A stretch of 64,000 nucleotides of DNA from an uncultured Candidatus Rokubacteria bacterium (GTDB lineage Bacteria; Methylomirabilota; Methylomirabilia; Rokubacteriales; CSP1-6), in the NCBI GenBank assembly GCA_963762145.1, contig CAVXJS010000010.1, positions 260,203 through 324,202 of the forward strand, given 5' to 3'. A program made the translations under genes and the position numbers. Below are positions 19,062 to 64,000 of this stretch, in pieces. Below the pieces are notes generated by a model that saw only the letters and a list, made by a program, of their open reading frames with translations, did not search any database and was not told the origin of the DNA. Numbering within the stretch: position 1 is the stretch's first letter; each line of letters begins with the position of its first letter.

Positions 19062-20015
19062 TGGCCGCGGTGCCGCCCTCCACGCCGGCCCAGGACGCGC
19101 AGCTCGCCCCCCGCGACGTGGTCGCGCCGCTGGTGCGCCCGGCGCCCCTGGGCCGAGCGCGAGTGGGTGACGCCTGCTGCGGCGGCTGGTGCGGCGCCGC
19201 ACCGCGCTGTTCGGCCTGCTCGTCGTGCTGGTGGTGATGCTGGCCGCGGTGGCCGCCCCGCTCGTCGCGCCGTTCGATCCCCTGGAGCAGGACATCGGCC
19301 AGCGCCTGCGGGAGCCGGGCTGGCAGGACGCGCAGGGGCGGGTGCATCCGCTCGGCACCGACCACCTCGGGCGCGACATCCTCTCGCGCATCATCTTCGG
19401 CTCGCGCATCGCGCTGCTGGTGGGCCTGGCCGCGGTCGCTGATCTCGGGCGTGCTCGGGATGATCATCGGGCTCGTGGCCGGCTACTTCGGCGGGCGCAT
19501 GGACGACTTCCTGATGCGCCTGGCCGACGTGCAGCTCGCCTTCCCGTTCATCCTGCTCGCGATCGCGGTCATCGGCGTGCTGGGGCCGAGCCTGCGCAAC
19601 ATCATCATCGTCATCGGGGTGTCGTCCTGGGTGGTCTACGCGCGGGTGGTGCGGGGCGAGGTGCTCTCGATCCGCGAGCGCGAGTACGTGCACGCCGCGG
19701 TGGCGCTGGGCAGCCGCGCACTGGCGCGTGCTGGTCACCCACGTGCTGCCGAACACCTTCACGCCGTGGCTGGTGGTGGCCACCCTCGACATGGCGCGGG
19801 TGATCGTGATCGAGTCCGCGCTGTCGTTCCTGGGGCTGGGCGTGCAGCCGCCCACGCCCACCTGGGGCGGCATGCTCGCCGACGGCCGCGTCTACCTCTC
19901 GACCGCGTGGTGGCTCGCGACGTTCCCGGGCCTCGCGATCCTCATCACCGTGCTCGGCATCAACCTCTTCGGCGACGGGCTGCGCGACACGCTCGACCCG
20001 CGCCTCAAGGTCTGA
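19061..20015 (+). pseudogene. peptide/nickel-type ABC transporter permease (DppC/OppC-like), at least 3 frameshifts
   Basis: Pieces ..PLVAPFDPLEQDIGQRL..HPLGTDHLGRDILSRIIFGSR.., ..GYFGGRMDDFLMRLADVQLAFPFILLAIA.. and ..SALSFLGLGVQPPTPTWGGML..INLFGDGLRDTLDPRL lie in three frames. The ATG overlaps the upstream stop. Confidence 0.8.
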
Positions 20016-20027
20016 CCTCGAGGGCCC

Positions 20028-21224
20028 ATGGACAGCTCTGACACGCTGGTGCTGAGCGGGGCGCGCATCATCGACGGGACGGGGGCCGAGCCGGTGCGCG
20101 GCCGGTCGGTGGTGGTGGAGAAGGGCGTGATCACCGCGGTGGTGGACGACGCGCGGGCGCCGCGCGGCCACGGCATCGACCTGGCCGGCCACACGCTCCT
20201 GCCCGGCCTCATCAACTGCCACGTGCACCTCTGCCTCGGAGCGGAGGCCGATCCGGTCCGGCCGATCCGCGAGGAGCCGCTGGCCCTCACCGCCATCAAG
20301 GCGCTGCTGCGGGCGCGGGAGACGGCGCGCGCCGGGGTGACCACGGTGCGGGACCTCGGGGGCCGCGAGTACGTGGAGATCGCGGCGCGGCGGGCCATCC
20401 AGGAGGGCCTCATCGACGGGCCGCGCATCCTGGCCGCGGGCCGCCCGGTGTGCATGACCGGCGGGCACGGGCACTGGCTCGGCCGCGAGGCCGACGGGCC
20501 CGACGACGCGCGCAAGGCGGTGCGCGAGCAGCTCAAGGCGGGCGCCGACGTGATCAAGATCATCGCCACCGGCGGGGTCATGACCCCGGGGGTGGAGCCC
20601 GGCTCCCCCCAGATGACGCTCGAGGAGATGCGCGCGGCCATCGAGGAGGCGCGCAAGGCCGGCCGCCGCACCGCGGCCCACGCGATGGCCGCGACCGGGA
20701 TCAGCGAGGCGATCGACGCGGGGATCACCTCGATCGAGCACGGGGTCGTTCCTCACCGAGGCGATCGTGGCCCACATGCGCCGCGACGGGACCTTCCTGG
20801 TCCCGACCCTGAACGCGCCCGCCGCCATCGCGTCGGGTGGCGTCGCGGCGGGGATTCCCGCGTTCATGGTGCGCAAGTCCGAGGAGGTCCTGTCCGCCGC
20901 ACGTGGCGAGCTTCCAGCTCGCGCATCGCGCCGGCGTGCGGATCGCGGCGGGCGCCGACTCGGGCACGCCGCTCAACTTCCACGGCTCGCTGCTGCCCGA
21001 GCTCACGCTGATGGTGAAGTACGGCATGACGCCGCTCGAGGCGATCCGGTCCGCCACCGTCACCGCGGCCGAGTGCCTCGGGCTGGGCGAGGTGACCGGC
21101 CGCGTGGCCCCCGGCTACGCGGCGGATCTGATCGCGGTGGCGGGGGATCCCGGCCGAGCGGATCGAGGCCCTCGCGGATCTGAAGACCGTGCTCGTGAAC
21201 GGCCGCGTCATCCCGACCGCGTAG
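20028..21224 (+). pseudogene. amidohydrolase-family protein (imidazolonepropionase / Xaa-Pro dipeptidase-like), frameshifted
   Basis: ..LLPGLINCHVHL.., ..DVIKIIATGGVMTPG.., ..AAHAMAATGI..SIEHG.. then ..AGADSGTPLNFHGS..GRVAPGYAADLIAV.. in other frames. Probable stop at 21222-21224. Confidence 0.75.
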
Positions 21225-48469: not shown

Positions 48470-50288
48470 ATGAAGATCAGCGCCGTAAAGAAGCTGTTCG
48501 TGGGATCACCGCTCGCTACGGCGCAGGCCCGGCACGAGCGGCTCTCGAAGACGTCCGCGCTCGCGGTCTTCTCGTCCGACGCGCTCTCCTCGGTGGCGTA
48601 CGCCACCGAGGAGATCCTGCTGGTCCTGGTGGTCGCGGGCACCGCCGCGCTCGTCTACTCGATTCCGATCGGGCTCGCGATCGCGGTGCTGATCGCGGTC
48701 GTGGTCAGCTCGTACCGGCAGACCATCCTGGCCTATCCCCAGGGCGGCGGCTCCTACATCGTCACCAAGGACAACCTGGGCCAGGTGCCCGGGCTCGTCT
48801 CCGGGGCCGCGCTGCTCATCGACTACGTGCTGACGGTCGCGGTGAGCGTGGCCGCGGGCGTGGCCGCCATCACCTCCGCGTTCCCCGTCCTCTACGACTA
48901 TCGCGTCCCGCTCGGCGTGCTCTTCGTCGCCGGGATCGCGACCATGAACCTTCGGGGCCTGCGGGAGTCGAGCAATCTCTTCGCGGTCCCGACCTACCTC
49001 TTCGTGATGAGCTTCGGGGGCATGCTCGCCTACGGCTTCATCCGGTGGGTGGCGGGATGGGAGACTCCGCCGCCTCCGACCGCCGATCTCGCGGTGACCC
49101 AGGACCTGTCCCTCTTCCTGGTGCTGCGCGCGTTCTCCTCCGGCTGCGCCGCGCTCACCGGCGTCGAGGCGGTGTCCGACGGCGTGCCCGCCTTCCGGCC
49201 GCCGGAGGCGCGCAACGCCCGCGTCGTGCTCGCCTGGCTCGGGTTCGATCCTGATCACGCTGTTCGTCGGCATCACGTTCCTGGCCCGTCACCTGCACAT
49301 CGTGCCGCGGGAGGACGAGACGGTGGTCTCGCAGCTCGCCCGCCTCATCTTCGGAGACGGGCTCCTGTACTACGAGATCCAGGTCGTCACCATGTTCATC
49401 CTGGTCTTCGCGGCCAACACCGCCTTCGCCGACTTCCCGCGGCTGGCCTACTTCCTGGCCCGCGACGGCTTCATCCCCCGCCAGTTCGCCACCCGCGGCG
49501 ATCGGCTCGTCTTCTCCAACGGGATCCTGATCCTGGGCGGCCTCGCCGCCCTCCTCATCGTGCTGTTCGGCGGGGCCACCCACGCCCTCATCCCGCTCTA
49601 CGCGGTGGGGGTGTTCCTCTCCTTCACGCTCTCGCAGGCGAGCATGGTGCGGCGCTGGCTCACTCGCCGCGAGCCGGGCTGGCGGTGGCGGTGGGGCCTC
49701 AACGCGGTGGGAGCGGCCACCACCGGCCTCGTGATGCTGGTCATCGCGATCACCAAGTTCAGTCACGGGGCCTGGATGGTCGTGCTGCTGATCCCGCTGC
49801 TGGTGGCGGTCTTCATGATGATCCATCGCCACTACGCCGACGTGGCGGGCCAGCTCTCGCTCGACGAGTACGGAGGGCCGCCCCCGATCGACCACACCGT
49901 GCTCGTGCTGGTGGGCGACCTGCACCGCGGGGTGGCCTCCGCGCTGCGCTACGCGCAGAGCCTCTCGGCGTCGGTGAAGGCGGTCTACGTCGAGATGGAT
50001 CCGGAGCGGACGCAGAAGCTCGAGGAGAAGTGGGGCAAGTGGGGGCTCGGGGTTCCCCTCGTGGTGCTGACGTCGCCCTACCGGTCGCTGCTCACCCCGT
50101 TCCTCGACTACGTCAACCACCTCCTCGCGCTGAGCGAGCGCCAGGTGGTCACGATCGTGATCCCGGAGTTCGTTCCGGCCCGGTGGTGGCAGCATCTCCT
50201 CCACAACCAGACCGCCCTGCTCATCAAGGGCGCGCTGCTGTTCCGCAAGGGCGTCGTGGTCGTGGACGTCCCCTTCCACCTCCGATGA
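48470..50288 (+). pseudogene. APC-superfamily permease, KimA-like (K+ uptake type), copy 1, one frameshift near 49245
   Basis: KKLFVGSPLATAQARHERLSKTSALAVFSSDALSSVAYATEEIL.. resembles the KimA/YdaO N-terminus. The second part (49302..50288 frame) carries the TM core and a C-terminal cytoplasmic domain (..VLVLVGDLHRGVASALRYA..VVTIVIPEFVPARWWQHLLHNQTAL..). Confidence 0.7.
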
Positions 50289-52109
50289 ATCTCTCCAAGC
50301 TCAAACGATGGTTCGTGGGCACGCCGATCGCGACGGCCCAGGCGCACCACGAGCGGCTCGGCCCGGTCACCGGTCTCGCCGTCTTCGCTTCCGACAACCT
50401 CTCCTCGGTGGCGTACGCCACCGAGGAGATTCTGCGTGTGCTCCTCCTCGCCGGGGTGGGGGCGCTCGCGTTCTCGGTGCCCATCGGCTTCTGCATCGCC
50501 GCGGTGATCGGGATCGTGATCATGTCGTACCGTCAGAACATCGCGGCGTACCCGCAGGGCGCCAGCGACTACATCGTGGCCAAGGACAACCTGGGGGTCT
50601 TCCCGGGCCTGACCGCGGGCGCCGCCCTCCTCATCGACTACACCCTGACGGTGGCGGTGAGCGTCTCCGCCGGAGTCGCCGCGCTCACCTCCGCCTTCCC
50701 GGTGCTCTACCCGTACCGGGTCGTGCTCGGCGTGGGCCTGGTGGTGCTCGTCGCGGTGGCGAACCTGCGGGGCATTCGCGAGTCCGGCCGGGTGTTCGCG
50801 GTGTGGAGCTACCTGTTCATCGCCGGGTATGCGCTGCTGATGGTCTACGGCTTCGCGGCGCTCGCGATCTGGGGCCGCCCCCCGGTGGAGTCGGTCGCGC
50901 CCCCTCCACCGCCTCTCGCCGAGCTCGGCGTGTTCCTGCTCCTGCGTGCCTTCGCCTCCGGCGCGGTCGCCCTCACCGGGATCGAGGCGGTCTCGGACGG
51001 CACCCCGGCGTTCCGGCCGCCGGAGGTGCGCAACGCGCAGACCGTGCTCGCGGTCCTCGGCGTGATCATGATCACGCTGTTCCTCGGCATCACGGTGCTG
51101 GCGGCCAGCTACGAGATCGTGCCGCACGACCAGGAGACCGTGGTCTCCCAGCTCGCCCGCGAGGTCTTCGGGGGCGGCCTGCTCTACTACTTCATCCAGG
51201 GCGTCTCGATGGTCATCCTGGCCCTCGCGGCCAACACCGCGTTCGCCGACTTCCCCCGGCTGGCGTCGTTCATGGCGCGCGACGGGTTCCTGCCCCGGCA
51301 GTTCGCGAGCCGGGGCGACCGGCTGGTGTTCTCGAACGGGGTCATCATCCTGGCGGTGGCCGCGTCGGCGCTGATCGCGCTCTTCGACGGGAGCACGCAC
51401 TCCCTGATCCCGCTCTACGCCCTCGGGGTCTTCACGTCGTTCACGCTGTCGCAGGTGGGCATGGTGCGCCGCTGGCTCACGCAGCCGCCCCGCGGGATGG
51501 CGGCCGAAGGCGCTGATCAGCGGGCTGGGCGCGGCGACCACCGGGCTCGTGATGGTGGTCACCGCGCTCGCCAAGTTCTCGGACGGGGCGTGGATCGTGG
51601 TGGTGATCGCGGGCGCCCTCATCGCGGGCTTCGTGAGCATCAACCGCCACTATCGCGAGGTGGCGGGCCAGCTCTCGCTCGACGGCTACGCGGGGCCGCC
51701 GCCCATGCAGCACACCGTGCTCGTCCTGGTCGGCGATCTCCACAAGGGGGTCGTGCAGGCGCTGCAGTACGCGCGCACCCTCTCGCCGTCGGCCAAGGCG
51801 GTCTACGTGGAGATGGATCCGGAGAAGACGCGCCGGCTCGAGGAGAAGTGGGGCAAGTGGGGCTTCGGCGTGCCGCTGGTGGTGCTGACGTCACCCTACC
51901 GGCTGCTGCTGTCGCCGCTGCTCGACTACGTGGACCATCTCCTCGCGCTCGGCGAGAACCACATGGTGACCATCGTCATCCCCGAGTTCATTCCGGCCAA
52001 GTGGTGGCAGCAGCTCCTCCACAACCAGACCGCGCTGGTGATCAAGGGCGCGCTGCTCTTCCGGCGAAATGTGGTGGTCACGGACGTCCCGTACCACCTG
52101 CGGAGGTAG
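50285..52109 (+). pseudogene. APC-superfamily permease, KimA-like, copy 2, one frameshift near 51490
   Basis: MNLSKLKRWFVGTPIATAQAHHERLGPVTGLAVFASDNLSSVAYATEEIL.. is collinear with copy 1 over its whole length. The ATG overlaps the copy 1 stop (ATGA). Confidence 0.7.
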
Positions 52110-52167
52110 TGAACGGTAATGAACCGGGGCTTGCCGAGGGACTCCAGATGAGTATTCTTGGGCAGAG

Positions 52168-53139
52168 ATGAGCTCGTTCCCGACCCTGCAGGCACCGCTC
52201 GTCACGATCCGGTCGGCGACGGCAGCCGATCATGACGCGTTGCAGGCCCTCGAGGGTGCCGCCCCGGACTCGCGGGCGAGCCTGCTCCAGGCCCGGCGGA
52301 ACTTCTTCTCCCGGATGGCCGCCTACGACCGTACCCATGTCCTGGTCGCCGAGCAGGAGGGCCGGGTGGTCGGGGTCCAGTGCCTGGCCCTGACTCCCGT
52401 GCGGGTGGCGGGTCAGCCCTGCGCGGCCGGGTACTCGTTCAATACCCGCGTCGCGCCCGCCCACCAGACCCGGGGCCTCGGCACCCGGCTCATGAAGGCC
52501 GGAGCCGAGTGGCTCGAGCGCCAGGGCTGTCGCTATGTCACGGGCCTCATCGGCATCTCCAACACCGCGTCAATGAAGATGGTTGGGGCGCTGGGCTGGG
52601 AGACCGCGGGGCGCTTCGACTATCTGATCCTGGATCTGGCCCGGTTCGAGCCCGACCCGGCCGTGCGCATCCGGAAGGTGGATGCGCTCGGGGATCCGGC
52701 CCATGCCGCGTGGCGGTTCGGGGAGGTCTCGCTCCACCACTTCGTACCGCGGTACCTGGTCTCGGAGCTCTTCACGCCGTACCCCAAGGGCGCCTACATG
52801 GGGAGCTTGACCGCGTTCGGACCCGGGGGTAGCGCCTGGGTCTCCCTCTGGGACGACCGGGTCCGGCGTGGCCTGGATCCGGAGGTGGTCCGGGCGGTCA
52901 AGGCCTATGACGTGACCCTCAAGGGGGTGGGGGGCTTCCGCGCCTTCTCGGGCATCGCCAATACCCTCCGGGAGGCGGGTCTCGATCATGTCCTGATGCC
53001 GCTCCCGCACGATCCCGCGATGCGGGAGGTCCTGGAGCCCTACGCGGCGGAGATCCTGGAGTTCAATTTCGTCATCAAGCGACTGAACGGCGCGGGGCCC
53101 CTCCCCCCGGGCCCCATCTACTTCGACATCCGGCACTGA
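52168..53139 (+). CDS. GNAT-family N-acetyltransferase with extra C-terminal domain
   Basis: ..VLVAEQEGRVVGVQC.. and ..RVAPAHQTRGLGTRLMKAGAEWLERQG.. (acetyl-CoA binding Q/RxxGxG/A), followed by about 170 unassigned residues. Confidence 0.7.
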   Translation: MSSFPTLQAPLVTIRSATAADHDALQALEGAAPDSRASLLQARRNFFSRMAAYDRTHVLVAEQEGRVVGVQCLALTPVRVAGQPCAAGYSFNTRVAPAHQTRGLGTRLMKAGAEWLERQGCRYVTGLIGISNTASMKMVGALGWETAGRFDYLILDLARFEPDPAVRIRKVDALGDPAHAAWRFGEVSLHHFVPRYLVSELFTPYPKGAYMGSLTAFGPGGSAWVSLWDDRVRRGLDPEVVRAVKAYDVTLKGVGGFRAFSGIANTLREAGLDHVLMPLPHDPAMREVLEPYAAEILEFNFVIKRLNGAGPLPPGPIYFDIRH

Positions 53140-53417
53140 GCCGGTCGCCGGTTGCCGGCGCTGCGTTCCGCTGCCCGGACGCCTCTGGTACACTGAAGCG
53201 CCGTCATGGAGGCAAGCTTCGTCGTCCCGGGCCCCCTGGACGTGGCCGGGACGCTCTCCCGGTTCCACCTCTGGGTCGGAGACCCGGCCAACCGATTCGC
53301 CGACCCTGTCGCCCTCCCGGCGCCGGGACGCCCAGTGGTTTCCGGTCCGTCGTGTGGACCGGGGCGTGCGATGAGTGAGCCGGCGGTGCGCCGCCGCGCT
53401 GCTGCAGGAGGTGGGGC

Positions 53418-53750
53418 GTGACGCCGCTCGGGAAGTTCCTCCCCATCGTCGGCCAGCCCGATCCGGCCAAGCCGAAGGACGTGCACCTGGTCGGCCGGTA
53501 CGCGCTCGGCGTCACCTGGGCGGACGATCACGGCAGCATCTATCCATTCGATCGGCTCCGGCTGGACGATCCCGCGGGCGGCGAGGTCGACCAAGCGGCC
53601 GCGCTCACCCAGGAGATGACGTGGCCGAAGGAGATCAAGAAGCTCCCGGATACGCTGCGGGTGCTGTGGCTGGACGGCCGCGAGAGCCTCTACCCGTACT
53701 CCACGCTCCGCGCGCTCTGCCGGTGCGCGGGCTGCACGGGTGGCCACTGA
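53418..53750 (+). CDS. DUF971-domain protein
   Basis: ..LVGRYALGVTWADDHGSIYPFDRLR.. and ..LWLDGRESLYPYSTLRALCRCAGC.. as in DUF971 (gamma-butyrobetaine-hydroxylase N-terminal-like) proteins. Confidence 0.7.
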   Translation: MTPLGKFLPIVGQPDPAKPKDVHLVGRYALGVTWADDHGSIYPFDRLRLDDPAGGEVDQAAALTQEMTWPKEIKKLPDTLRVLWLDGRESLYPYSTLRALCRCAGCTGGH

Positions 53751-55198
53751 TGAGCGGGGAGCTGGACGTGGCGACGCGCCGAGGGCTGGTGCTGAGCGGC
53801 GTGATGGCCGCCGTGTTCCTGGCCGCGATGGAATCCACCGTGGTGGCCACCGCGATGCCCACCGTGATCGCCAGCCTGGGTGGCATCCGGATCTACTCGT
53901 GGACGTTCTCCGCGTTTCTCCTGACCTCCACCGTGACGATGCCGATCTGGGGCCGGCTCGCCGATCAGATCGGCCGGCGGCCCGCGTACCTGGCCGGGCT
54001 CGCGCTCTTCCTCCTCGGCTCGGCCCTCGCGGGGCTGTCACGCAGCATGGAGCAGCTCATCGCGTTCCGCGCGCTGCAGGGACTGGGGGCGGGGTCCCTG
54101 ATCTCGATCGGCATGACCATCGTCGGCGACCTCTACGGGGTCGAGCGGCGGGCGAAGATGCAGGGCTACTTCTCGAGCGTCTGGGGCGTCGCGTCCCTGG
54201 TCGGGCCGCTCGTGGGCGGTCTGCTCACGGATCGCGTGTCCTGGCGCTGGGTCTTCTACATCAACATTCCGTTCGGCCTGCTCGCCGCGGTGGCCATCGC
54301 GATCGGGCCTGCGCGATGAGCGCCGGGATCGGCCGCGCGGGTCATTCGACCTGCTCGGCATGAGCGTGTTCGCGGCCGCGATCTCGGCCCTGCTGGTGGG
54401 CCTGGTCGAGATCGGGGCGGGCGATCCCCGTCGGACGACCGGGACTCGCGCTGCTCGTGCTCTCCGCGGTGCTGCTCGTGCTGTTCGTTCTCTTCGAGCG
54501 CCAGGTGGCCGATCCGGTGATCCCGCTCCGTCTCTTCGCCAATCCGGTCCTGCGCGCGGCCGCGGTCACCGGCTTGCTCTCCGGGATGGCCATGTTCGGC
54601 GCGCTCACCTACGTGCCGCTCTACCTGCAGGCCGTCACCGGCAGCACTGCGACCCAGGCCGGCTGGGTGCTGATGCCGTTCGTGCTGGGCTGGGTGGTCT
54701 TCTCGGTGGTGGGCGCCCGGCTCGTGATGCGCGTGGGCTACCGGCGCGTCGTCCTGGCCGGGATGACCGCGCTCGTGCTCGCCTTCGTCTTGCTCGCGGG
54801 CTGGGACGAATCGCTCACGCGGCTCACCGCGGCCCGTGACATCACGCTCGCGGGCGTCGGCATGGGGCTGGTCTTCGTGCCGATGCTGATCGCGGTGCAG
54901 AACTCGGTGCCGCGATCCCTGCTGGGGTCGGCCACCTCGCTGACCGGATTCTTCCGGACGGTGGGCGGCGCGCTGGGGGTCACGGTGATGGGGGCGGCGA
55001 TGACCCACCGGCTCGAGCGGGCCCTCGATGGGGTCGTGGCGACCGCGCCGGTCGAGCTGCAGGAGCCCCTGCGCTGGCTGGCCGCCCATCCGGATCTCGC
55101 GGTCAACCCGATCACCCGGGCGACACTCGGCGAGGCCCTGCTGGGCCAGATGCGCCCGGTGCTGGCTCACGCGATCGGCGGGGTGTTCGTGGTCGGCC
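53750..55198 (+). pseudogene. MFS transporter (DHA2/EmrB-like), at least 3 frameshifts, extreme 3' end missing
   Basis: ..AAMESTVVATAMPTVIASLGG..PIWGRLADQIGRRP..FRALQGLGAG... Later TM segments lie in two other frames. Recognisable sequence stops inside the last TM (..AIGGVFVVGL) at about 55198. Confidence 0.75.
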
Positions 55199-55199
55199 T

Positions 55200-55532
55200 G
55201 TCCAGAAGAACAAGTACGGGCTGCCGGCGGTCACGCTCCGGGTCTTCAACGTCCTGAACGTGGACGCCTACCGGCTGCTCGACCACGCGGAAATGCTGGC
55301 GTTCCTGGGCGAGGCGGGGCTCGAATCGGTGCCCCAGCTCGGGACGCTGGTGCTGAACCACACGGTGGACGAGCTGGTGGCCTTCTCCGAAGGGACGAGC
55401 GTGCTCAACCCGAAGGTCCAGCGGGAAGGCGTGGTGCTTCGCCCGCTCGCGGAGGAGTATGACGAGGACATCGGCGGCCGGCTGAGCTTCAAGGCGATCA
55501 ATCCGAAGTTCCTGCTGAAGTACGACGAGTAG
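55200..55532 (+). pseudogene. ATP-dependent RNA ligase family, C-terminal fragment only (about 110 aa)
   Basis: The frame reads VQKNKYGLPAVTLRVFNVLNVDAYRLLDHAEMLAFL..VPQLG..SVLNPKVQREGVVLRP..GGRLSFKAINPKFLLKY. This resembles the C-terminal third of DRB0094/Rnl5-like RNA ligases as I recall them. No N-terminal adenylyltransferase motifs are present upstream. Confidence 0.55.
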
Positions 55533-55610
55533 GCGGGCGGCTGCGTGGCGAGGGTCAGGTCCTCGCCACCGCCCGAACCACGAAGATCGGCAACGCGATA
55601 TCGGGTCCCC

Positions 55611-56513
55611 ATGAGCACCCTGCAACGCCTGACAGACCGTGGCCTGATCCGGCCGCCGCGATGGCTGCCCGGGAACGTCCAGTACGAGACGATCATGGGC
55701 TCGGTGGCCTACGGGGTGTCCTCGGATACGAGCGACGTCGACGTCTACGGCTGGGCGATCCCGCCGAAGGAGGACATCTTCCCCCACCTCCGGGGCGAGG
55801 TCCCCGGCTTCGGGCGCCAGGCGAAGCGGTTCGAGCAGTTCCAGGAGCACCATATCCAGGACCGGGACGCCCTCGCCGGGCACGGCCGGAGCTACGACCT
55901 GGCGATCTTCGGCATCGTCAAGTTCTTCGCCCTGGCGATGGAGAACAACCCGAACATCATCGACTCCCTCTTCACGCCCACGACCTGCGTCCTGCACAGC
56001 ACTCGGGTGGGCAACCTCGTGCGGGAGAACCGGCGGCTGTTCCTGCACAAGGGGGCCTGGCCGAAGTTCAAGGGGTACGCCTACAGCCAGCTGCACAAGC
56101 TGGCGATCAAGGAGCCGCAGGGCAAGCGGGCCGAGCTGGTCGCCGAGCACGGCTTCGACACCAAGTTCGGCTACCACGTCGTCCGGCTCATCGGCGAGGT
56201 GGAGCAGATCCTGATGGAAGGCGACATCGACCTCCAGCGCAATAACGAGCAGCTCAAGGCGATCCGCCGGGGTGAATGGACCGAGGAGCGTCTGCGTCAG
56301 TGGTTCGCGGACAAGGAGGCGGACCTCGAGCGCGTGTTCGCCGAGAGCACGCTCCGGGCCGTGCCGGACGAGGCGGGGCTGCGAGCCCTGCTCCTGAACT
56401 GCCTGGAGGAGCATTACGGCAGCCTCGAGGGATGCGTCGTGGACCCCGATCGGGCGGTCGTCGCCCTGCGGAACATCCAGGCCGAGCTGGAACGGGTGAA
56501 GGACCTGCTATGA
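55611..56513 (+). CDS. Pol-beta-superfamily nucleotidyltransferase, PF10127 (Nuc-transf/RlaP) type, paralog 1
   Basis: ..YETIMGSVAYGVSSDTSDVDVYGWAIPP.. (GS-x-D-x-D NTase motif), ..KFFALAMENNPNIIDSLF.., ..AYSQLHKL... Confidence 0.7.
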   Translation: MSTLQRLTDRGLIRPPRWLPGNVQYETIMGSVAYGVSSDTSDVDVYGWAIPPKEDIFPHLRGEVPGFGRQAKRFEQFQEHHIQDRDALAGHGRSYDLAIFGIVKFFALAMENNPNIIDSLFTPTTCVLHSTRVGNLVRENRRLFLHKGAWPKFKGYAYSQLHKLAIKEPQGKRAELVAEHGFDTKFGYHVVRLIGEVEQILMEGDIDLQRNNEQLKAIRRGEWTEERLRQWFADKEADLERVFAESTLRAVPDEAGLRALLLNCLEEHYGSLEGCVVDPDRAVVALRNIQAELERVKDLL

Positions 56514-57287
56514 GCGAGGACCGGACCGTGGACGTCGATGAACGGCTCAGGCAGGAGGTCGCCCGCCACCCGTACCCGCTGGTCTTCGCCACGATCAGCG
56601 GGGCGCACCTCTACGGCTTCCCGTCGCCCGACTCGGACTACGACCTGCGGGGCTGCCACGTCCTGCCGGCGCGGGAGGTGGTCGGCCTCGACGTCGGGCC
56701 GGAGACGATCGAGTCCTCGAAGGACGAGGACGGGCTCGAGCTCGACCTGGTCACGCACGACGCCCGGAAGTTCTTCGGCCTGATGCTGAGGAAGAACGGC
56801 TACGTGCTGGAGCAGCTGTACTCGCCGCTCGTGGTCCACACCACGCCCGAGCACGAGGAGCTGAAGGCGATCGCCCGCGGGCTGCGTCACGAGGTACCAA
56901 GCCCACCACTACTTCGGGTTCGCCGAGACGCAGTGGAGGCTGTTCGACAAGGAGCGGCCCCGGCGGGTCAAGCCGCTGCTCTACGTCTACCGGGTTCTCC
57001 TCACGGGCATCCACCTGATGCGAACGGGCGAGGTCGAGGCGAACCTCGTGCGGCTCAACGTGGAGGCCCGGCTCTCGCACGTCGATGACCTCATCGCCCG
57101 GAAGATCGCCGGGCCCGAGAAGTCGGCCCTCGACGATGCCGACGTGGCGTTCCACCGACGGGAGTACGAGCGGCTCAGGGCCGAGCTGGAGGCGGCCCAT
57201 CAGTCCAGTTTGCTGCCCGAGACGCCGACCGCCCGGCCGGCCCTGAATGACCTGCTCGTGCGGATGCGGATGCGAACGGCGGGGTGA
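56510..57287 (+). pseudogene. Pol-beta-superfamily nucleotidyltransferase, PF10127 (RlaP) type, paralog 2, one frameshift near 56880
   Basis: ..LVFATISGAHLYGFPSPDSDYDLRGCHVLP.., ..KFFGLMLRKNGYVLEQLYSPL... After a frame switch: ..QAHHYFGFAETQWRLFDKE..KPLLYVYRVLLTGIHLM... The ATG overlaps the paralog 1 stop. Confidence 0.7.
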
Positions 57288-57394
57288 GCGGCTTCGCCCG
57301 CCGCCAGGTCTGCGGCCATCGGTTGTTATCCGGCCCCCAATCGGTCACGATGATCGCTCCACTTACAGTTGTCGAAGGCGCGAGATCGTGACCG

Positions 57395-58369
57395 ATGAAG
57401 AACGTGGGTTGGCTCTTCCTGGCGGTCCTCATCGCGTATGGCTGCGCCGTGGTCGCGCCGCTCCTGCGATACCGGCTTCGGGGTGGGGTCGGCGCCTTCG
57501 TCGGCTGGTGCTTCGTGCCGATGATCCTCGCCTGCCCATTGCTCATCCCGTCCGCGAACGTCGGGCTGCGGGCCGCGTCCGCCTTCGCATCGGGCGACAT
57601 CACCTTCAAGATGGTCGACTACTTTCGCCATTGGGGCCACGTGGACCGGAGCATCGTCCTTCGCGAGTACTACCGCTTCCTGATCCCGTTCCCGGTCCTC
57701 TCCGCCGTCTATCCCGATCACAAGCGCCGGTTGCTGCGTCCGGAGAGCCCCTGGCCGCAGGTCCTGCGCCTCTTCGGTGGGATCGTCGGTGTCACCATGG
57801 CCCTCCTGGCGGTGAGGACTCTCTCCGGCATCGCCCAGGTCCGATCGAGCTTCGCGTTGAACCATGCCGTGATGTTGCCGACCTTCGTGCTCGCGATCGA
57901 ATCGCTCTCGCGGGCGCTCTGCGGGCTCGAACGCCTGGCGGGATTCGACACGACTCCGATCATCCGAAACGCCTACCTGTCGCGGACCGTCTCCGAGTTC
58001 TGGCGACGGTACAACGACCGGATCCATGACTGGCTCTACCGCAACGTCTTCCAGGCGACCGGAGGCCGACGCGCCCCGGTCCGTTCCGTGCTGCTGGTGT
58101 TCCTGGTCAGCGGCCTGTTTCACGAGGTGATGTTCGCGCTGGCGACCTCGCGACTGACCGGCTATCAGCTCGCGTTCTTCGCGATCCAGGGCCCGGCGGC
58201 GCTGGCCTCGGGACGCCTCGAGCGCCTGGCCAGGCGAGGCGGGATCGCGGGCAAGATCGCGGCCCACGGGGCCACGATCCTCTTCGTCGCCGTCACGTCC
58301 GTCCTCTTCTTCGACGGGGTCGGCAAGATCTTCCCCTTCATCTATGCCAGCCAGTCGCCGCTGCCGTAG
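57395..58369 (+). CDS. MBOAT_2 / wax-synthase-like membrane acyltransferase
   Basis: 324-aa polytopic ORF with ..VSEFWRRYNDRIHDWLYRNVF.. and ..GLFHEVMF.. (conserved His). Codon third positions are visibly less GC-rich than in core genes. Confidence 0.55.
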   Translation: MKNVGWLFLAVLIAYGCAVVAPLLRYRLRGGVGAFVGWCFVPMILACPLLIPSANVGLRAASAFASGDITFKMVDYFRHWGHVDRSIVLREYYRFLIPFPVLSAVYPDHKRRLLRPESPWPQVLRLFGGIVGVTMALLAVRTLSGIAQVRSSFALNHAVMLPTFVLAIESLSRALCGLERLAGFDTTPIIRNAYLSRTVSEFWRRYNDRIHDWLYRNVFQATGGRRAPVRSVLLVFLVSGLFHEVMFALATSRLTGYQLAFFAIQGPAALASGRLERLARRGGIAGKIAAHGATILFVAVTSVLFFDGVGKIFPFIYASQSPLP

Positions 58370-58540
58370 GACGCGTTCCCCAGGTGTCCGTTCAGTGACA
58401 CCACGTCGCTCGTGAGTGTCCTTCGCCAAACGGATAGCGATTGGTGCTTGCGTGCAAAAGTTGGTGGGGTGGCTGCTACAGGAAGGCGAACCGTGAAGCA
58501 GGGCCCACCAGGGCGAATAGCCGGATGAGTCCGATAGCGG

Positions 58541-59133
58541 CTAACCACGGATGGCCTGGATCGCTCGTCCGCTTGCCAGCCGGACCACCACGTCCTTGTC
58601 CTCGAGCGCCGCGGTGAGGGCCGGGACGGCTCCCTGGCGTCCGGGCCAATCCGGCCCAGCGCCCCGCGCTGGCGCAGCGGACATTCCCTGCTCGTCCTTG
58701 AGCGCCGCGGTGAGGGCCGGCACGGCCTCCCTGGCATCCGGGCCGATCCGGCCCAGCGCCTCCGGCTCTCGCCAGCGTCCCAAGCGCCTCGGTGAGGGCC
58801 GGCACGGCCTCCTTGGCCTCCGGGCCAGATCTCTGTCCGCGCCCGAGGCATCGAGCCCGACGACCGGCATCGCGGCATCCGGCCTACCGCGTCCCTGAGC
58901 GGTGCGATGAGGGCCGGCACGGCCTCCCTGGCATCCGGGCCGATCCTGCCCAGCGCCTCAGCGGACTACCCGGACCTCGTCCTTGAGCGCCGCGATGAGG
59001 GCCGGCACGGCCTCCCTGGCAGCCGGGCCGATCCGAGCCCAGCGCGTGCGCGGCATTGCCTGCAGCGGACACTCGAATCCCCGTCCTTGAGGCCCGCGAT
59101 GAGGCCTTCGACTCGTTCCTGCAAATCGGACAT
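58541..59133 (-). pseudogene. HEAT (PBS-lyase-type) repeat protein, decayed or mis-assembled
   Basis: ATG at 59133 with a GGGAG RBS (MSDLQERVEGLIAGLKDGDSSVR..). AVPALTAALKDE.. / ..ALGRIGPDAREAVPAL.. units are spread over all three frames. The DNA repeat starts are spaced 96, 82, 115, 88 and 104 bp. Confidence 0.6.
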
Positions 59134-59865
59134 GACAACTCCCAGATTAAATACCCGGGGCGGTGGGGGAGAACACCTCCCTCGGCACCGCCTCCGCCGC
59201 GGGCGGTCGATGGACCGCCGGCGACGGAAGCGACGCCGTGAAAACCCTTGCCTCGCGTAGCAGCGCAGCCCGGGCCGGGGCCCCGGGGGGCCTCCGCGAG
59301 GGCAGCGCATCATCTATATATAGAAATCAGACCCGAGATTGAGAGGGCAAAGAGCGGGGTCTCGAAGAGACTGGAACGGTGGAGAGTGAAATCTAGTGAA
59401 ATTATTGCGACATGTCAATATCGCCGGAATTTGGCTGCTTCAGGACGGACGTGCGGGAGCAGGGACCCGGCCAGGGGAACAATTGCATCCTCCGGTCCGG
59501 GCGAAGACGGGTGACGACCCGGAAGAATCCCCGACCGGGATCGGCCCGAGGCCCTTCCGGAACAAGTCTCGAATCGGCGCGAACATCTTCGGCGACTCCT
59601 GCGTCTACAGTGGCATGCAAGGCAAGGCGATGGCCCATGTGAGCGGCCTCGCCGAAGCGGCTCGAGGCACCGAAACGACCGAGGTCACGATGTTTGCCGT
59701 GTGGACCAGTCACCCCTGTAAGCGATCCGGAGCGGGTCGTCTCGCCGGTCAACCGGCGTATTCGCTGCCCGTCCCTCCGCTGCGCCTGTGACGCCCCGGC
59801 CGACGCAACCTCGACGGTTCGCCCCGGGCCCGGCGTCATGAGACAGCCGGGCCTCTTCGTTGGAT

Positions 59866-59937
59866 GGGCCGGTAGCTGAGACGGTGTAGCGGCGGCCTGA
59901 AGAGCCGCAGACGTGGATTCGAGCGCCACCCGGCCCA
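59866..59937 (+). tRNA. tRNA-Phe (GAA), no CCA
   Basis: gggccgg ta gctg agacggtg tagc g gcggc ctGAAga gccgc agac gtgga ttcgagc gccac ccggccc a. It has a 4-nt variable loop and one A.G mismatch in the T stem. Confidence 0.7.
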
Positions 59938-59949
59938 CTCTCAAAGAAT

Positions 59950-60022
59950 GGCTCGTTCGTCTATCGGCCGAGGATACCGCCCTTTCAAGGCGAAGAGGTG
60001 GGTTCGATTCCCACACGGGCTA
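59950..60022 (+). tRNA. tRNA-Glu (UUC), no CCA
   Basis: ggctcgt tc gtct atcggccga ggat a ccgcc ctTTCaa ggcga agag gtggg ttcgatt cccac acgggct a. It closely resembles the classical bacterial tRNA-Glu body and has two G.U pairs in the acceptor. Confidence 0.75.
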
Positions 60023-60036
60023 CTCGCAGGAACGAT

Positions 60037-60110
60037 CAGGGCGTGGGAAAGCCTGGCAATCCGCAAGCTCGGGGGGCTTGAGACCGCCGGTTCGAATCCG
60101 GCCGCCCTGA
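60037..60110 (+). tRNA. tRNA-Pro (GGG as drawn; CGG if one G of the G6 run is spurious), no CCA
   Basis: cagggcg tg ggaa agcctggca atcc g caagc tcGGGgg gcttg agacc gccgg ttcgaat ccggc cgccctg a. Position 33 is C instead of U, and there is an A.A pair in the D stem. Confidence 0.6.
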
Positions 60111-60188
60111 CTCACAGACAGAACTCGTAGCGAGGACCGAGGCGATGGTCTGGATCAAACGCATACCCCGGCACGAGGTCTCCCGACC

Positions 60189-60259
60189 GGGGTCGTGGTG
60201 TAGCGGCAGCATGTCGGCCTTTTAAGCCGGTCGGCGGGGTTGAAATCCCTCCGGCCCCA
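60189..60259 (+). tRNA. tRNA-Lys (UUU), no CCA
   Basis: ggggtcg tg gtgt agcggca gcat g tcggc ctTTTaa gccgg tcgg cgggg ttgaaat ccctc cggcccc a. The T loop is TTG instead of TTC, and the first T-stem pair is mismatched. Confidence 0.6.
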
Positions 60260-60331
60260 TGGCGCCTCGCTCAACGGGAGAGCGCTCGCCTTATAAGCGA
60301 ACGACGAGGGGTTCAACTCCCCCGGCGCCGA
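60260..60331 (+). tRNA. tRNA-Ile (UAU), no CCA
   Basis: tggcgcc tc gctc aacggga gagc g ctcgc ctTATaa gcgaa cgacg agggg ttcaact ccccc ggcgccg a. It starts 0-1 nt after the preceding tRNA and has a U1.G72 pair. Confidence 0.6.
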
Positions 60332-60354
60332 CCAACGGGAGAAGCAAACAGAGG

Positions 60355-60425
60355 CGGCCTGTCGTTCAACGGGAGAACACCCGGCTGATAACCGGGCGGC
60401 GGAGGTTCGACTCCTCCCTGGCCGA
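60355..60425 (+). tRNA. tRNA-Ile (GAU), no CCA
   Basis: cggcctg tc gttc aacggga gaac a cccgg ctGATaa ccggg cggc ggagg ttcgact cctcc ctggccg a. It has the same D loop as the UAU species and one U.U mismatch in the acceptor. Confidence 0.65.
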
Positions 60426-60440
60426 CTCGCGATGGCTATC

Positions 60441-60513
60441 GGGACTGAAGTTCTAGCGGCAGAACGTCCGGCTCTTAACCGGTTCGGTGAGGGTTCGAGC
60501 CCCTCCGGTCCCA
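60441..60513 (+). tRNA. tRNA-Lys (CUU), no CCA
   Basis: gggactg aa gttc tagcggca gaac g tccgg ctCTTaa ccggt tcggt gaggg ttcgagc ccctc cggtccc a. Position 8 is A instead of U. Confidence 0.65.
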
Positions 60514-60523
60514 CTCCGATGCT

Positions 60524-60595
60524 GCACTGGTCGTCTAGCGGCGAAGATTCCGCCCTCGTAAGGCGGGGACGTGGGTTCGAGTCCCACCCGGTGCT
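60524..60595 (+). tRNA. tRNA-Thr (CGU), no CCA
   Basis: gcactgg tc gtct agcggcga agat t ccgcc ctCGTaa ggcgg ggac gtggg ttcgagt cccac ccggtgc t. All stems pair. The D arm, anticodon stem and T arm are near-identical to the Glu gene at 59950. Confidence 0.75.
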
Positions 60596-60611
60596 CTCGG
60601 CCCTCTTTGCA

Positions 60612-61216
60612 CTTCCATCTGCAGGCAGCCGTTGTGCGCGGTGACGACCTGGTAGCTGAAGCCGGCGGCGAGCAGCAGGTCGGGCGGGTCAGGCCGTGGC
60701 GGAGCAGCCAGCCGGGTCCGAGCTCGCCGCCGAACTCCTCGTCGTAGGTGAAGTGCAGCTCGACCGCGCCCTTCAGCGGCAGGTTCAGCGCCTTCGAGCG
60801 CGCGCAGCGCGAAGGTGTAGGTCGCGAAGTCGCTCTTGCTGACCGCCGAGGCGCGGCCGTAGAGCTTGCCGTCGGCGACCTCGCCGCCGTAGGGATCGTG
60901 GGTCCAGCCGTCGCCGGGCGGCACGACGTCGCCGTGCGCGTTGAGGGCGATCGTCGGGCCGTCGCCGTGGCGGCGCCGCACGATCAGGTTGGTCAGCGAT
61001 TCGAGCCCGTAGGCCGCGACATCGTCGGCCGGGACCGGCGTGGCGCTCGGCCTCGAGGCCGAACTCGGCGAGCAGTTCGGCGGTGCGTTCGGCGTGCGGC
61101 GCATTGCGGCCGGGCGGGGTGTCGGTCGGGACCTGCACCAGCGCCTGCAGGAAGCGGACTTCCTCGGCGAAGTGCGCGTCGACCCAGCGGTCGAGTTGTT
61201 CGTACGGAGTGGTCAT
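60612..61216 (-). pseudogene. M20-family metallopeptidase (ArgE/DapE-like), N-terminal about 200 aa only, frameshifted
   Basis: MTTPYEQLDRWVDAHFAEEVRFLQALVQVPTDTPPG.. then ..LIVRRRHGDGPTIALNAHGDVVPPGDGWTHDPYGG..GRASAVSKSDFATY..AGFSYQVVTAHNGCLQMEV. Similarity ends about 15 nt from the tRNA-Thr 3' end. Confidence 0.65.
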
Positions 61217-61242
61217 GCGGTGTCGACGGCTGGCGGCGTCCG

Positions 61243-63119
61243 TCAGCGGGTCGTTTCGGCGGCCACCTGGTCGAGCAGGCGGGCGAATGCCTCGACGGCG
61301 AGCTGGATGTCGTCGTTGGTGCTCGATTCGAGCGGGTTGTGGCTGATGCCGGCGTTCTCGCCGCGCACGAACAGCATGCCCTGCGGCATCACCTCGTGCA
61401 GCTTCATCGCGTCGTGGCCGGCGCCGCTCGGCATCCGGTGCGGCGGCAAGCCGGCCGCCTCGACCGCGCGGGCCCAGTGCTGCTGCCACTCGGCCGCACA
61501 CGGCGCGGCGGCGGCGCGCATCGTCTCCTCGATCCGGTAGCTCAGGCCGCGCCGCTCGCAGATCGCTTGCAGCTCGCGCGAGCACGTCGTGCGCGCAGGC
61601 GTCGCGCACCGGGTCGGTCGTCGAGCGGATGTCGAGCGTGAACTGGCAGCGGCCCGGGATCACGTTGGTCGAGCCGTTCGGCACGTTCAGGATGCCCATC
61701 GTGCCGACCACGTTCGGCTCGGCCGCCGCGCGCTCCTCGAGGTAGAGCGCGAGCTCGGCGACCGCGGTCGCGGCGTCGCGGCGGCGGTCCATCGGCGTCG
61801 TGCCGGCGTGGCTCGCCATGCCGATCACCTCGCCGGCATAGCGCACGCCGCCGTTGATCGACGTGACGACGCCGAGCGGCAGGTCGAGCTCGTTCAGGAC
61901 CGGGCCCTGCTCGATGTGCAGCTCGACGAAGCCGAGGTACATCGAGGGGTCGCGGCGCAGCGACGCGATCGTCGTCGATGCGCAGGCCGGCCTGCTGCAT
62001 CGCGTCGCGCATCGCGACGCCGTCGGCATCGAGCTGGTCGAGCCAGGCCGGGTCGAACTGGCCGACCAGCGCGCCCGAGCCGAGGAACGTCGCCTTGTAG
62101 CGCTGGCCTTCCTCCTCGGCGAAGCCGACGACCTCGAAGTCGTAACGGCAGGCGCCGGCCGGCGCGGTGCAGCTCGCGCACGCAGGCCATCGGCGCGAGG
62201 ATGCCGAGGCGCCCGTCGTACTTGCCGCCGTTGCGCACGGTGTCGTAGTGGCTCCCCGTCAGCAGCCGCCGGCTGCTGACAGGGGCCACTTCGTGGTTGA
62301 ACGGGCCCGACCCCTCCCGCTCCCGCCCCGTCCAGGGGAGGGCCTGACGCGTTCGGCAAGCGTGGTGTCGCTCCAGTAAACACCGACGACGTTGCCGACC
62401 GCATCGATCGAGACCTCGTCGAAGCCGCACTCGTCGCGCATCCAGGCGACCAGCTGCGCCGCGCAGGCGCGGTGCGCGTCGGTCAGGTAGGTGACCGTCA
62501 GCTGTCCCAGCTCGGCATAGCCGGGGTCGGTGTGCCGGGCGAGCGATTCGGCCCAGTCCCAGACGAGGTTGCCGAGCTCCGGCGTCACGCCGAACTTGTC
62601 GTCGAGGCGGATCTCGGCGATGCGGTGGATGTTGCGCAGGCACTCGGCGAGCTCGAAGTCGGGGTGGTTCGCGAGTCGGCGCTCGAAGGTCGCGATGATC
62701 TGCCGCGCGGCTCAGGCCGGCGCCGCGCGGGCCGCGCACCGCGAGGATGAACGGCCAGCCGAACTTGGCGTTGTAGTCGGCGTTGAGCCGCTGGATCCGC
62801 GCGAACTCGTCCGGCGTGCAGTCGGTCAGGCCGGCGCGGCCCTGCTCGTTGCGTCGACTCCGCGGTCAGGCTCTGGCTGACCATCGCCTTGCCGGCCAGC
62901 TCCGGGTGGGCGCGCACCAGCGCGATCTGCTTCTCGCGCCCGCTGCCGCGCACGACCTCGACGAGTGCACGCTTCAGCGCCGCGAGGCTCGCGAACGGCC
63001 GCGCGCCCGCGGCCTGCGCCGGCGATCCACGGCGAATGCTCGTAGGTGCCGTCGAGCAGCGCGGTGAACTCGTCGCGCGAGGCGGCGTTCAGTCGGTCGA
63101 GCGTCAGCACAGCGGGCAT
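61243..63119 (-). pseudogene. fused OHCU decarboxylase / allantoate amidohydrolase-like protein, many frameshifts
   Basis: N-terminus MPAVLTLDRLNAASRDEFTALLDGTYEHSPWIA.. and ..VRAHPELAGKAMVSQSLTAESTQ.. (OHCU decarboxylase). It continues without an obvious stop into ..LTVTYLTDAHRA..DAVGNVVGVY.., ..LLTGSHYDTVRNGGKYDGRLGI.., ..ELHIEQGPVL.., ..MPSGAGHDAM..FVRGENAGISHNPLE.. (M20 amidohydrolase). Confidence 0.6.
62306..62344. repeat. degenerate REP-like element inside the allantoate-amidohydrolase-like coding region
   Basis: cccgacccctcccgctcccgcccc-gtcca-ggggagggcc resembles the ccctcgcccc-N4-gggggagaggg unit of copy B. It adds a Pro/Gly/Arg-rich stretch (..RPSPGRGGSGRG..) where homologues I recall are shorter. 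Confidence 0.4.
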
Positions 63120-63129
63120 CGAGAAAGCC

Positions 63130-64000
63130 TCAGAGGGTCACGCGGATCGTCTTGACCAGCGGCGCGAGCGCTCGCCACCTGGTCGCGCACGAACGCGTTG
63201 AATTGCGCCGGCGTGCCCGGCGTGGCGGTCACGCCGAGCTCGAGCAGGCGCTGCCTGATCTCGGGCTGGGCGAGCACTTCGTTGACCGCGGTGTTCAGGC
63301 GTGCGACGAGGTCGGCCGGCATCTTGGCCGGGCCGGTCAGGCCGAAGAAGTTGTCGAGCACGAGCTTGCGGTAGCCGGCCTCGACGACGGTCGGCACGTC
63401 GGGCACGAGCGGCGAGCGCTGCGACGACGTCACGGCGAGCGGGCGGATCTGGCCGCTCTTGAAGTACGGCACGAACGCGGTCACGACGTCGATGCCGACC
63501 GGGATCACGCCGGAGATCAGGTCGGTCGTCATCGGCGCGCCGCCGCGGTACGGCACGTGGCCCATCTTGATGCCCATCGTGCGCATCATCAGCTCGCCGT
63601 AGATGTGGCCGATCGAGGCCGGGCCGCCGGAGCCGAACTGCAGCTGGCCCGACTTGCGCGCGGCGTTCTCGAGGTCGACGATGGTGTTGATGCCGGTCGC
63701 CGGATTCGCCATCACGACGCACGGCGCCGAGCCGATCGCCGCGATGTGCGTGAAGTCGACGAGCGGGTCGTACGGCTGCTTCTCGAGCGCGAACGGGCCG
63801 ATCGAGATCGGCGTCGAGTTCGACAGCATCAGCGTGTAGCCGTCGGGCGCCGACTGGGCGACCGCGCTGCCGCCGACGCTGCCGCCGGCGCCCGGCCGGT
63901 TGTCGACGATCACCGCCTGGCCGAGCCGCTTGCCGAGCTGCTCGCCGACGACGCGGGCGACGATGTCGCTGGCGCCGCCGGCCGCAAACGTGACGACGAT
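63130..64000 (-). pseudogene. tripartite tricarboxylate transporter substrate-binding protein (Bug/TctC family), 5' end outside window, one frameshift near 63175
   Basis: ..IVDNRPGAGGSVGG..PDGYTLML..VPYRGGAPMTTDLISG..QIRPLAVTSSQRSPLVPDVPT... A frame switch gives the tail ..ALAPLVKTIRVTL and a stop at 63130. Confidence 0.75.

Follow-up and report, generated by a model that had tools for sequence, protein, structure and literature searches.

Gene content of the block and its borders

We analysed a stretch of 64,000 nucleotides (nt), referred to below as the window, from contig CAVXJS010000010.1 (positions 260,203 to 324,202), which is deposited as DNA of an uncultured Candidatus Rokubacteria bacterium. 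Its subject here is a block at positions 55201-60609, in which RNA-repair genes stand beside a run of tRNA genes and which is bordered on both sides by truncated genes. The original prediction, made from the sequence alone, listed a truncated MFS transporter gene, an RNA ligase remnant, two RlaP nucleotidyltransferase genes, an MBOAT gene, fragments of a HEAT-repeat gene, a non-coding stretch, a tRNA array and a truncated M20 peptidase gene. This inventory was recovered with Pfam, ARAGORN and Rfam, the non-coding stretch measuring approximately 550 bp and the array comprising eight tRNA genes. The GC content of the block is 0.67, against 0.70 and 0.72 in its flanks, and the surrounding DNA has approximately 70% GC.

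At the start of the block stands the 3' end of a gene for an ATP-dependent RNA ligase of the Rnl5 type (55201-55532, plus strand). Its 111 remaining codons cover positions 81-171 of the 171 in the Pfam RNA_ligase profile (match at 55194-55532). This remnant is 88-89% identical at the nucleotide level to full-length genes at three other loci (L005, L007 and L008), and its relatives carry the full ligase gene, including the KLDG motif. Neither the N-terminal OB-like domain nor the complete KxDG nucleotidyltransferase domain expected of an Rnl5 enzyme was found in the window. Lacking the OB domain and the catalytic-lysine region, the window copy cannot be functional.

Two genes of the RlaP family (PF10127) follow. 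RlaP1 (55611-56513, plus strand) encodes an intact protein of 300 amino acids, with a Pfam score of 54.9 bits for the open reading frame (ORF) at 55545-56513, and is 85-92% identical in amino acids to 300-residue proteins of Isosphaeraceae, such as those of Singulisphaera and Tundrisphaera. RlaP2 (56510-57287, plus strand) is broken into two frames, scoring 108.5 bits (56276-57088) and 18.6 bits (57018-57287), by an additional base at 56878, absent from three related contigs (L001, L089 and L090). The scores of RlaP1 and of the N-terminal part of RlaP2 lie well above the 23-bit cut-off, placing both proteins in the family. Next comes a gene for an MBOAT-family membrane O-acyltransferase of 324 amino acids (57395-58369, plus strand; Pfam MBOAT, 51.8 bits), whose relatives, at least 90% identical, occupy the same position on L089 and L090 (contigs of 24,652 and 18,406 bp). 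Its third-position GC content had been described as visibly low; it is indeed lower than that of RlaP1 (0.87-0.90 versus 0.93-0.99), but the difference is small. On the opposite strand, a fragmented coding region (58342-59313, minus strand) has weak matches to the Pfam HEAT and HEAT_2 profiles (58541-58870). This region is internally repetitive, with many offset self-matches and a length difference of approximately 830 nt between L089 and L090, and TRF detected no clean tandem array in it.

The HEAT gene is separated from the tRNA genes by a non-coding leader (59314-59865). In the alignment of the window with L089 and L090, it is 97-99% identical in the three assemblies, compared to approximately 94% for the flanking protein genes. 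The leader has an AT-rich core at 59310-59420 and one sigma-70-like site on the minus strand (59418-59390); it contains no plus-strand sigma-70 consensus site, has no match in Rfam and shows no excess of predicted folding (z=-0.03). Its conservation alone marks it as a probable divergent promoter and leader.

The tRNA genes (59866-60596, plus strand), on which ARAGORN and Rfam agree, are the first eight of a long array: Phe-GAA, Glu-TTC, Pro-GGG, Lys-TTT, Ile-TAT, Ile-GAT, Lys-CTT and Thr-CGT. Their Rfam scores range from 44.6 to 63.2 bits, against a cut-off of 29 bits. These eight different tRNAs occupy 731 bp on one strand, without periodicity and at a density above two genes per kb. The Ile-TAT tRNA (60260-60334), which reads AUA, abuts tRNA-Lys(TTT) with no spacer. 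To our knowledge, an isoleucine tRNA with a TAT anticodon is uncommon in bacteria, a modified CAT tRNA being the usual solution.

Both borders of the block are abrupt. The breakpoints first placed at about 55198 and 60596-60612 could be refined to 55199|55201 and 60609|60610. At junction 1 (55199-55201), a three-way alignment of the left-flank contigs (L094 and L092), the window and the block contigs (L089 and L090) shows that the window follows the left flank through GGTCGGCCT (55199), has one unassigned G at 55200 and continues as block sequence from TCCAGAAGAAC (55201). The two reading frames do not agree across the join. The last 36 codons of the MFS gene are missing, and the ligase gene retains only its last 111. 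At junction 2 (60609-60610), the block ends in the spacer sequence CTCTTTG at 60609, 13 nt past tRNA-Thr, in the spacer that precedes tRNA-Gly(GCC) in its relatives. Homology to Variovorax begins exactly at 60610, within an M20 gene that keeps approximately 203 N-terminal codons and lacks approximately 205.

A short direct repeat had been reported at both junctions, as might be left by an insertion. The motif TCGGCCYT has 12 matches in the window versus 7.5 expected, and its core TCGGCC occurs 173 times. At junction 1 the motif belongs to the flank, whereas at junction 2 it belongs to the block, its end lying 5 nt short of the breakpoint. Since the two copies fall on different sides of their junctions, they cannot represent a target-site duplication, and we rejected this explanation: the motif is common, GC-rich and misplaced, that is, a chance match. 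No host-side direct repeats were found at both junctions, as would be expected of an integrative island. As originally noted, the block carries no integrase or transposase, and Pfam detected no integrase, recombinase or transposase domain in any ORF of 55.2-60.6 kb.

Three probable sources joined in one contig

The left flank (1-55199) ends in the EmrB/QacA-type MFS transporter gene (53750-55199, plus strand; Pfam MFS_1 in 53375-54319 and 54457-55257), whose intact relatives are found in L092, L093 and L094. An exact-protein look-up with the DUF971 protein adjoining this gene retrieved four contigs from four other samples (L091-L094), which match the window over 43.4-55.2 kb, L092-L094 with 97.6-98.9% nucleotide identity. 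Look-ups of the same kind with the MBOAT and ligase ORFs of the window retrieved nothing. The match of the four contigs ends at 55199/55200, and nothing in them matches the window beyond 55200. They continue with an intact MFS gene (518 amino acids), followed by genes for a 176-residue protein, a PNPOx protein, an ABC-F ATPase and an HNH protein. Over more than 8 kb downstream of the MFS gene, no M20 or AllC gene was found in any of the four, nor did any of them show an empty site with the two flanks adjoining. The expectation that relatives would have an MFS/M20 locus without the block was, thus, not borne out. The left flank carries the housekeeping genes rpoD, dnaG, mutS2, groEL and dnaB, and the named members of the 90%-identity clusters to which its proteins belong are Candidatus Rokuibacteriota and Candidatus Acidoferrum.

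Elsewhere in the left flank, two tandem paralogous amino-acid permeases of the APC family are read as one ORF of 1,233 codons (48470-52171), a fusion produced by 1-nt indels private to the window (49247 and 51484); the near-identical contigs have two intact genes, for proteins of 605 and 607 amino acids. In L094, the HNH gene is followed by a phage-type integrase, HTH_17, DUF3987 and a primase-polymerase-like protein (15274-20333); at this site, the other left-flank contigs carry several ABC substrate-binding genes in a row. This region of L094 is a strain-variable integrative element, approximately 3.4 kb past the end of the intact MFS gene. The stretch at 13-17 kb of the window was considered as a further foreign segment on account of its weak codon-position GC contrast and was discarded: it encodes TPR-repeat proteins and nothing unusual.

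The right flank (60610-64000) starts with the N-terminal part of an M20 (ArgE/DapE-like) hydrolase gene (60610-61216, minus strand), recognised by Pfam Peptidase_M20 in 60535-61104 and by reconstruction of its frame. All named homologues of the frame-corrected fragment are Burkholderiales, with 80-86% identity, and include Burkholderiaceae, Rubrivivax, Ramlibacter, Polaromonas and Variovorax. The sequence at 60610-63063 is collinear with a replicon of Variovorax sp. PDNC026 (79.8% nucleotide identity), starting exactly at the junction, and the Variovorax M20 gene extends approximately 615 nt beyond the junction point. Besides M20, the right flank encodes an allantoate amidohydrolase, an ORF resembling OHCU decarboxylase and a Bug/TctC-like binding protein. 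Its ORFs stand alone or almost alone in their 90%-identity clusters; for the left flank, most such clusters contain hundreds of members.

The block itself has relatives on two contigs, L089 and L090, which match the window at 55179-60609 with 94-96% nucleotide identity. The flank of L089 encodes a protein that shares 90% identity or more with proteins recorded under the name Isosphaeraceae. The closest relatives of the three adjacent segments are, therefore, unrelated taxa: Rokuibacteriota and Acidoferrum on the left, Isosphaeraceae in the middle and Burkholderiales on the right. Independent assemblies run collinearly past the breakpoints into other sequence, as four contigs do for the left flank and two contigs do for the block at both of its ends. 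The tetranucleotide profile of the block correlates best with the flank of L090 (0.86) and that of the right flank with Variovorax (0.77), while the two parts of the left flank correlate at 0.92. Such a composition check had been proposed together with the prediction; the profiles fit the three-source assignment but are not decisive alone.

The frame changes that gave some genes a decayed appearance are largely a matter of assembly. A plot of codon-position GC revealed them in the MFS gene, RlaP2, M20, the neighbouring amidohydrolase and the permease pair. Compared with the near-identical assemblies of the left flank (four in all), only the window has the 1-nt indels at 49247, 51484, 54304 and 54446. 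A single ENA project is the origin of the related contigs, and each has private indels of its own. We therefore rejected the frameshifts as marks of real pseudogenes in the left flank and in the block, and the gene decay described earlier is mostly not biological. The right flank stands apart, with three frame changes in the 620 nt of the M20 fragment and roughly eight in 3.4 kb, several times the density elsewhere in the window. This is consistent with thin read support in that segment. The window thus derives from an error-prone metagenome assembly, probably one of long reads.

We weighed four explanations for this arrangement. It is hardly credible that a mobile accessory island with a direct repeat, combining RNA repair and tRNA supply, was inserted between the MFS and M20 genes of one genome, as the original prediction proposed. 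The gene content would suit a repair-and-supply theme and the GC content of the block is slightly lower, but its flanks come from different phyla, the MFS gene of the conspecific contigs precedes other genes with no M20 nearby, and the supposed repeat is misplaced chance similarity. Moreover, both ends of the block are truncations within a larger unit, and the catalytic half of its ligase is missing. A rearrangement or deletion scar in a single planctomycete genome, fusing MFS to ligase and array to M20, was an alternative offered with the prediction and would explain why both junctions join truncated genes. This is also very improbable: the contigs that share 98-99% identity with the MFS side are non-planctomycete and carry housekeeping genes, and the M20 side is Burkholderiales-like, so the three parts were never neighbours in one genome.

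A genuine strain-specific structure deserves somewhat more consideration, although we judge it unlikely. Under this explanation, the organism of the left flank would have taken up a planctomycete fragment and Burkholderiales DNA by illegitimate recombination, destroying the end of its MFS gene. The mosaic is present in the deposited contig, the left-flank contigs that lack it come from other samples, and the indel error rate of the block is similar to that of the left flank. However, the explanation needs two adjoining and very recent transfers from two other phyla, with cuts at functionally meaningless points (in the middle of the ligase, of the array and of M20) and with neither recombinase nor repeats. 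The block is as close to L089 and L090 as these are to each other, so there is no sign that it has resided in another genome, and the frameshift density of the right flank is much higher. A real double transfer is far less likely than a chimera.

An assembly chimera, which had also been named as an alternative and is supported by the left-flank and block contigs that run past the breakpoints, is the best reading. It accounts for three phyla within 9 kb and for the cuts at functionally meaningless points, as well as for the independent assemblies passing the breakpoints, the absence of recombination signatures and the error-rich third segment. As far as comparison of contigs can tell, the deposited 330,995-bp contig is very probably such a chimera, with two misjoins inside the window. 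The block is real sequence, but both of its truncated-gene borders are almost certainly artefacts of these misjoins. Positions 1-55199 would derive from a high-GC soil bacterium, 55201-60609 would come from the interior of an island in an Isosphaeraceae planctomycete, and 60610-64000 would derive from a Burkholderiales bacterium. The truncations of the MFS, ligase and M20 genes and the end of the array after the eighth tRNA would then result from the two joins and not from biological events in one genome. ORFs of all three segments are recorded on one public contig of that length, which indicates that the mosaic is present in the deposited assembly.

Several points weigh against this conclusion. 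The misjoins are deduced from the comparison of contigs rather than observed in reads. The near-identical left-flank contigs were obtained from other samples, which leaves a small probability that the insertion is specific to the strain in this one. The right flank is matched past junction 2 by a relative of only approximately 80% identity, the Variovorax replicon whose M20 gene runs 615 nt further, and by no conspecific contig. As for the island from which the block would stem, most of the Isosphaeraceae loci with the RlaP pair (approximately 60) have no adjoining tRNA array or ligase, and MBOAT and HEAT have no assigned part in its proposed repair role.

The arrangement otherwise resembles that of chimeric long-read metagenome contigs, with abrupt joins of unrelated taxa, genes cut in mid-frame, locally raised indel errors and independent assemblies that disagree at the breakpoints. 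It differs from them in that the joins are only 5.4 kb apart and involve three source taxa. The practical lesson of the window is, thus, one of quality control, as three phyla are joined within 5.4 kb in a public contig of a metagenome-assembled genome (MAG). Islands, pseudogenes or horizontal transfers inferred from the gene neighbourhoods of this contig would be wrong. We recommend discarding the block as an island of this genome and flagging the contig as a chimera.

The source island and the distribution of its parts

Seen against L089 and L090, the block is an inner part of a larger unit, cut at both ends. In these two contigs the ligase gene is full length, and their mutual likeness begins approximately 90 nt upstream of its start codon, beyond which their flanks differ. 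Both contain the same eight tRNAs in the same order as the window, followed in L089 by 24 more. Up to the contig end, ARAGORN detected 32 tRNAs within 3,021 bp of L089 (14469-17489) and 11 in L090; at the Rfam gathering score, 24 of those in L089 were found. The threshold of at least 20 tRNA genes at two or more per kb, by which long arrays (L-arrays) are defined (PMC4758250), is thus reached by L089, whereas the window, with eight, falls short of it on account of the misjoin. Aligned across these assemblies, the natural order reads as a full-length Rnl5 ligase gene, two RlaP genes, MBOAT, HEAT on the opposite strand, a leader of approximately 550 nt and an array of at least 32 tRNAs.

Leader and array together are 96-99% identical across the three assemblies, compared to approximately 94% for the genes. 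A compensatory change in the anticodon stem of tRNA-Thr points to selection on the array tRNAs. They may be divergent from the chromosomal set: the array tRNA-Lys(CTT) shares only approximately 57% identity with a chromosomal tRNA-Lys(CTT) of Isosphaeraceae. Bacterial tRNA-Leu normally has a long variable arm. Four of the five tRNAs with leucine anticodons in L089 (TAA, TAG, CAA and GAG) are only 74-76 nt long and lack it, and the same array has two adjoining CAT tRNAs of 70 nt.

The full-length ligase of one locus (L023) matches the structure of the Naegleria gruberi RNA ligase (5cot_A) from end to end (E=3e-63), which identifies the enzyme as an Rnl5-type ligase joining 5'-phosphate and 3'-OH ends. 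The 1.08-kb ligase gene behaves as a discrete module, with 89-92% nucleotide identity in unrelated contexts (L005, L007, L008, L089, L090 and L117). In L117, it lies in a conjugative element of 58% GC with a TrwC relaxase, a TraG-like coupling protein and an HNH gene; in L007, it is surrounded by many small ORFs and an HNH gene. Among public homologues of the ligase, two (P0196 and P0222) have the OB domain fused directly to the C-terminal 70-90 residues or so, without the catalytic core. Such internal-deletion forms could be real decay products or assembly artefacts.

Searching species-representative genomes for RlaP loci returned 80 loci, among them contigs labelled "MFD". The RlaP1-RlaP2 pair (55609-57280) forms a discrete 1.67-kb cassette in approximately 65 fetched loci, with 72-89% nucleotide identity and flanks that are never syntenic with the window. 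It recurs in planctomycete loci, those of Isosphaeraceae and Gemmataceae among them, in surroundings that differ each time, and one MAG (MFD01721.bin.2.217) has two copies on different contigs (L009 and L068). We considered a fixed unit of RlaP, MBOAT, HEAT and array across Isosphaeraceae and rejected it, as MBOAT and HEAT occur in none of 84 RlaP loci besides L089 and L090. No MFS or M20 gene was found near the RlaP pair among the loci of the genome scan. A ligase gene lies near the pair only in L023, where it is downstream and convergent, and L038 has a small remnant.

In three gammaproteobacterial loci of the 80, RlaP stands together with an RNA ligase and a tRNA array. L071 has six tRNAs with genes for Band7, a HEAT-repeat protein of 546 amino acids, a CCA-adding-type enzyme, RlaP, RtcB and an RF-1-domain protein. 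L070 has four tRNAs with an HNH gene, followed by Band7, RlaP, RtcB and an RF-1-domain protein. L085 comprises two RlaP genes, RtcA, RtcB, RtcR and 12 tRNAs. Both L070 and L071 have, within their arrays, a tRNA whose anticodon, AAT, is unusual. A search of phages and plasmids had been suggested together with the prediction. BLAST retrieved no copy of the whole block from them, only distant RlaP homologues (65-73%) and isolated tRNA-sized matches. Two viral contigs have tRNA clusters approximately 4 kb from an RlaP gene and two others have a related ligase nearby. Exact-pattern scans matched neither the leader nor the Lys/Ile tRNA junction in viral contigs, and did not find the leader in JGI metagenome contigs. 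A general link between RlaP and tRNA arrays is, thus, suggestive but not statistically established.

Proposed role and comparison with known systems

The predicted RNA-repair and tRNA-supply role does not hold for an island of this genome, yet it would fit the natural source island as well as the independent loci with RlaP, ligase and tRNA array. In such a system, the array would supply a second, sequence-divergent set of tRNAs, and the ligase and RlaP enzymes would mend cleaved tRNAs. Translation might thereby be kept running under attack by anticodon nucleases or ribotoxins or under translational stress. Tentatively, ligase, RlaP and a long divergent tRNA array may make up one transferable unit of tRNA backup and repair, present in Isosphaeraceae and, in other forms, in some Gammaproteobacteria and large phages, that would protect translation from tRNA-cleaving toxins and nucleases. 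Within it, the 1.08-kb ligase and the 1.67-kb RlaP pair would be discrete and highly conserved mobile modules, carried among other places on a conjugative element.

In phage T4, as in the island, tRNA genes share one genome with an RNA ligase gene and a gene of the RlaP family. The phage has its own tRNA cluster and repairs tRNAs with Pnkp and Rnl1 against the anticodon nuclease PrrC. Its RlaP-family enzyme is NrdC.11 (bioRxiv 10.64898/2025.12.29.696909). Unlike T4, the stretch with the island has no phage structural genes, and no end-healing kinase or phosphatase was found there. RlaP enzymes of Pseudomonas were recently shown to extend the 3'-OH of damaged RNA by one or two nucleotides, and RlaP has been proposed to let ligases restore tRNAs that lost nucleotides (bioRxiv 10.64898/2025.12.29.696909). 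The RtcB-RlaP-RtcA operons of Pseudomonas, like the island, place PF10127 beside an RNA ligase, with a proposed restoration of tRNA 3' ends before ligation. The island differs from them in its fixed pair of RlaP paralogues, its 5'-phosphate ligase and its attached tRNA array, and in the absence of RtcA and RtcR; the study on RlaP does not mention a tRNA array.

The tRNA array units of mycobacteria, their plasmids and their phages are large supernumerary sets in mobile or variable DNA, as the array of the island would be, and have been considered as possible counter-defence (PMC5966550, PMC12803027). These units belong to another phylum, and no linkage to RNA ligase or RlaP was found in these reports as far as they were searched. 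The trn operon of PCC 7120 (PMC8421152), like the island, has dozens of packed, non-periodic tRNAs on one strand, in a variable context and with RNA-processing or repair neighbours; the tRNAs of the island would also share a divergence from housekeeping copies. Long arrays have been described as supernumerary and spread by horizontal transfer (PMC8421152). In cyanobacteria, the neighbourhoods of long arrays are enriched in RNA-processing genes, including rtcB, and contain an HNH endonuclease gene (PMC8421152). The island differs in its host, Isosphaeraceae, in a ligase of Rnl5 type rather than RtcB, and in the two RlaP genes, MBOAT and HEAT that lie between ligase and array. By its gene content, the block can, thus, be read as a fragment of a known kind of locus, a long tRNA array with RNA-repair neighbours. 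Together with the gammaproteobacterial loci of RtcB, RlaP and arrays, the Isosphaeraceae array of at least 32 tRNAs beside Rnl5 and an RlaP pair connects tRNA repair with sets of spare tRNAs in a concrete way that can be put to the test, and this is relevant to the purpose of long tRNA arrays.

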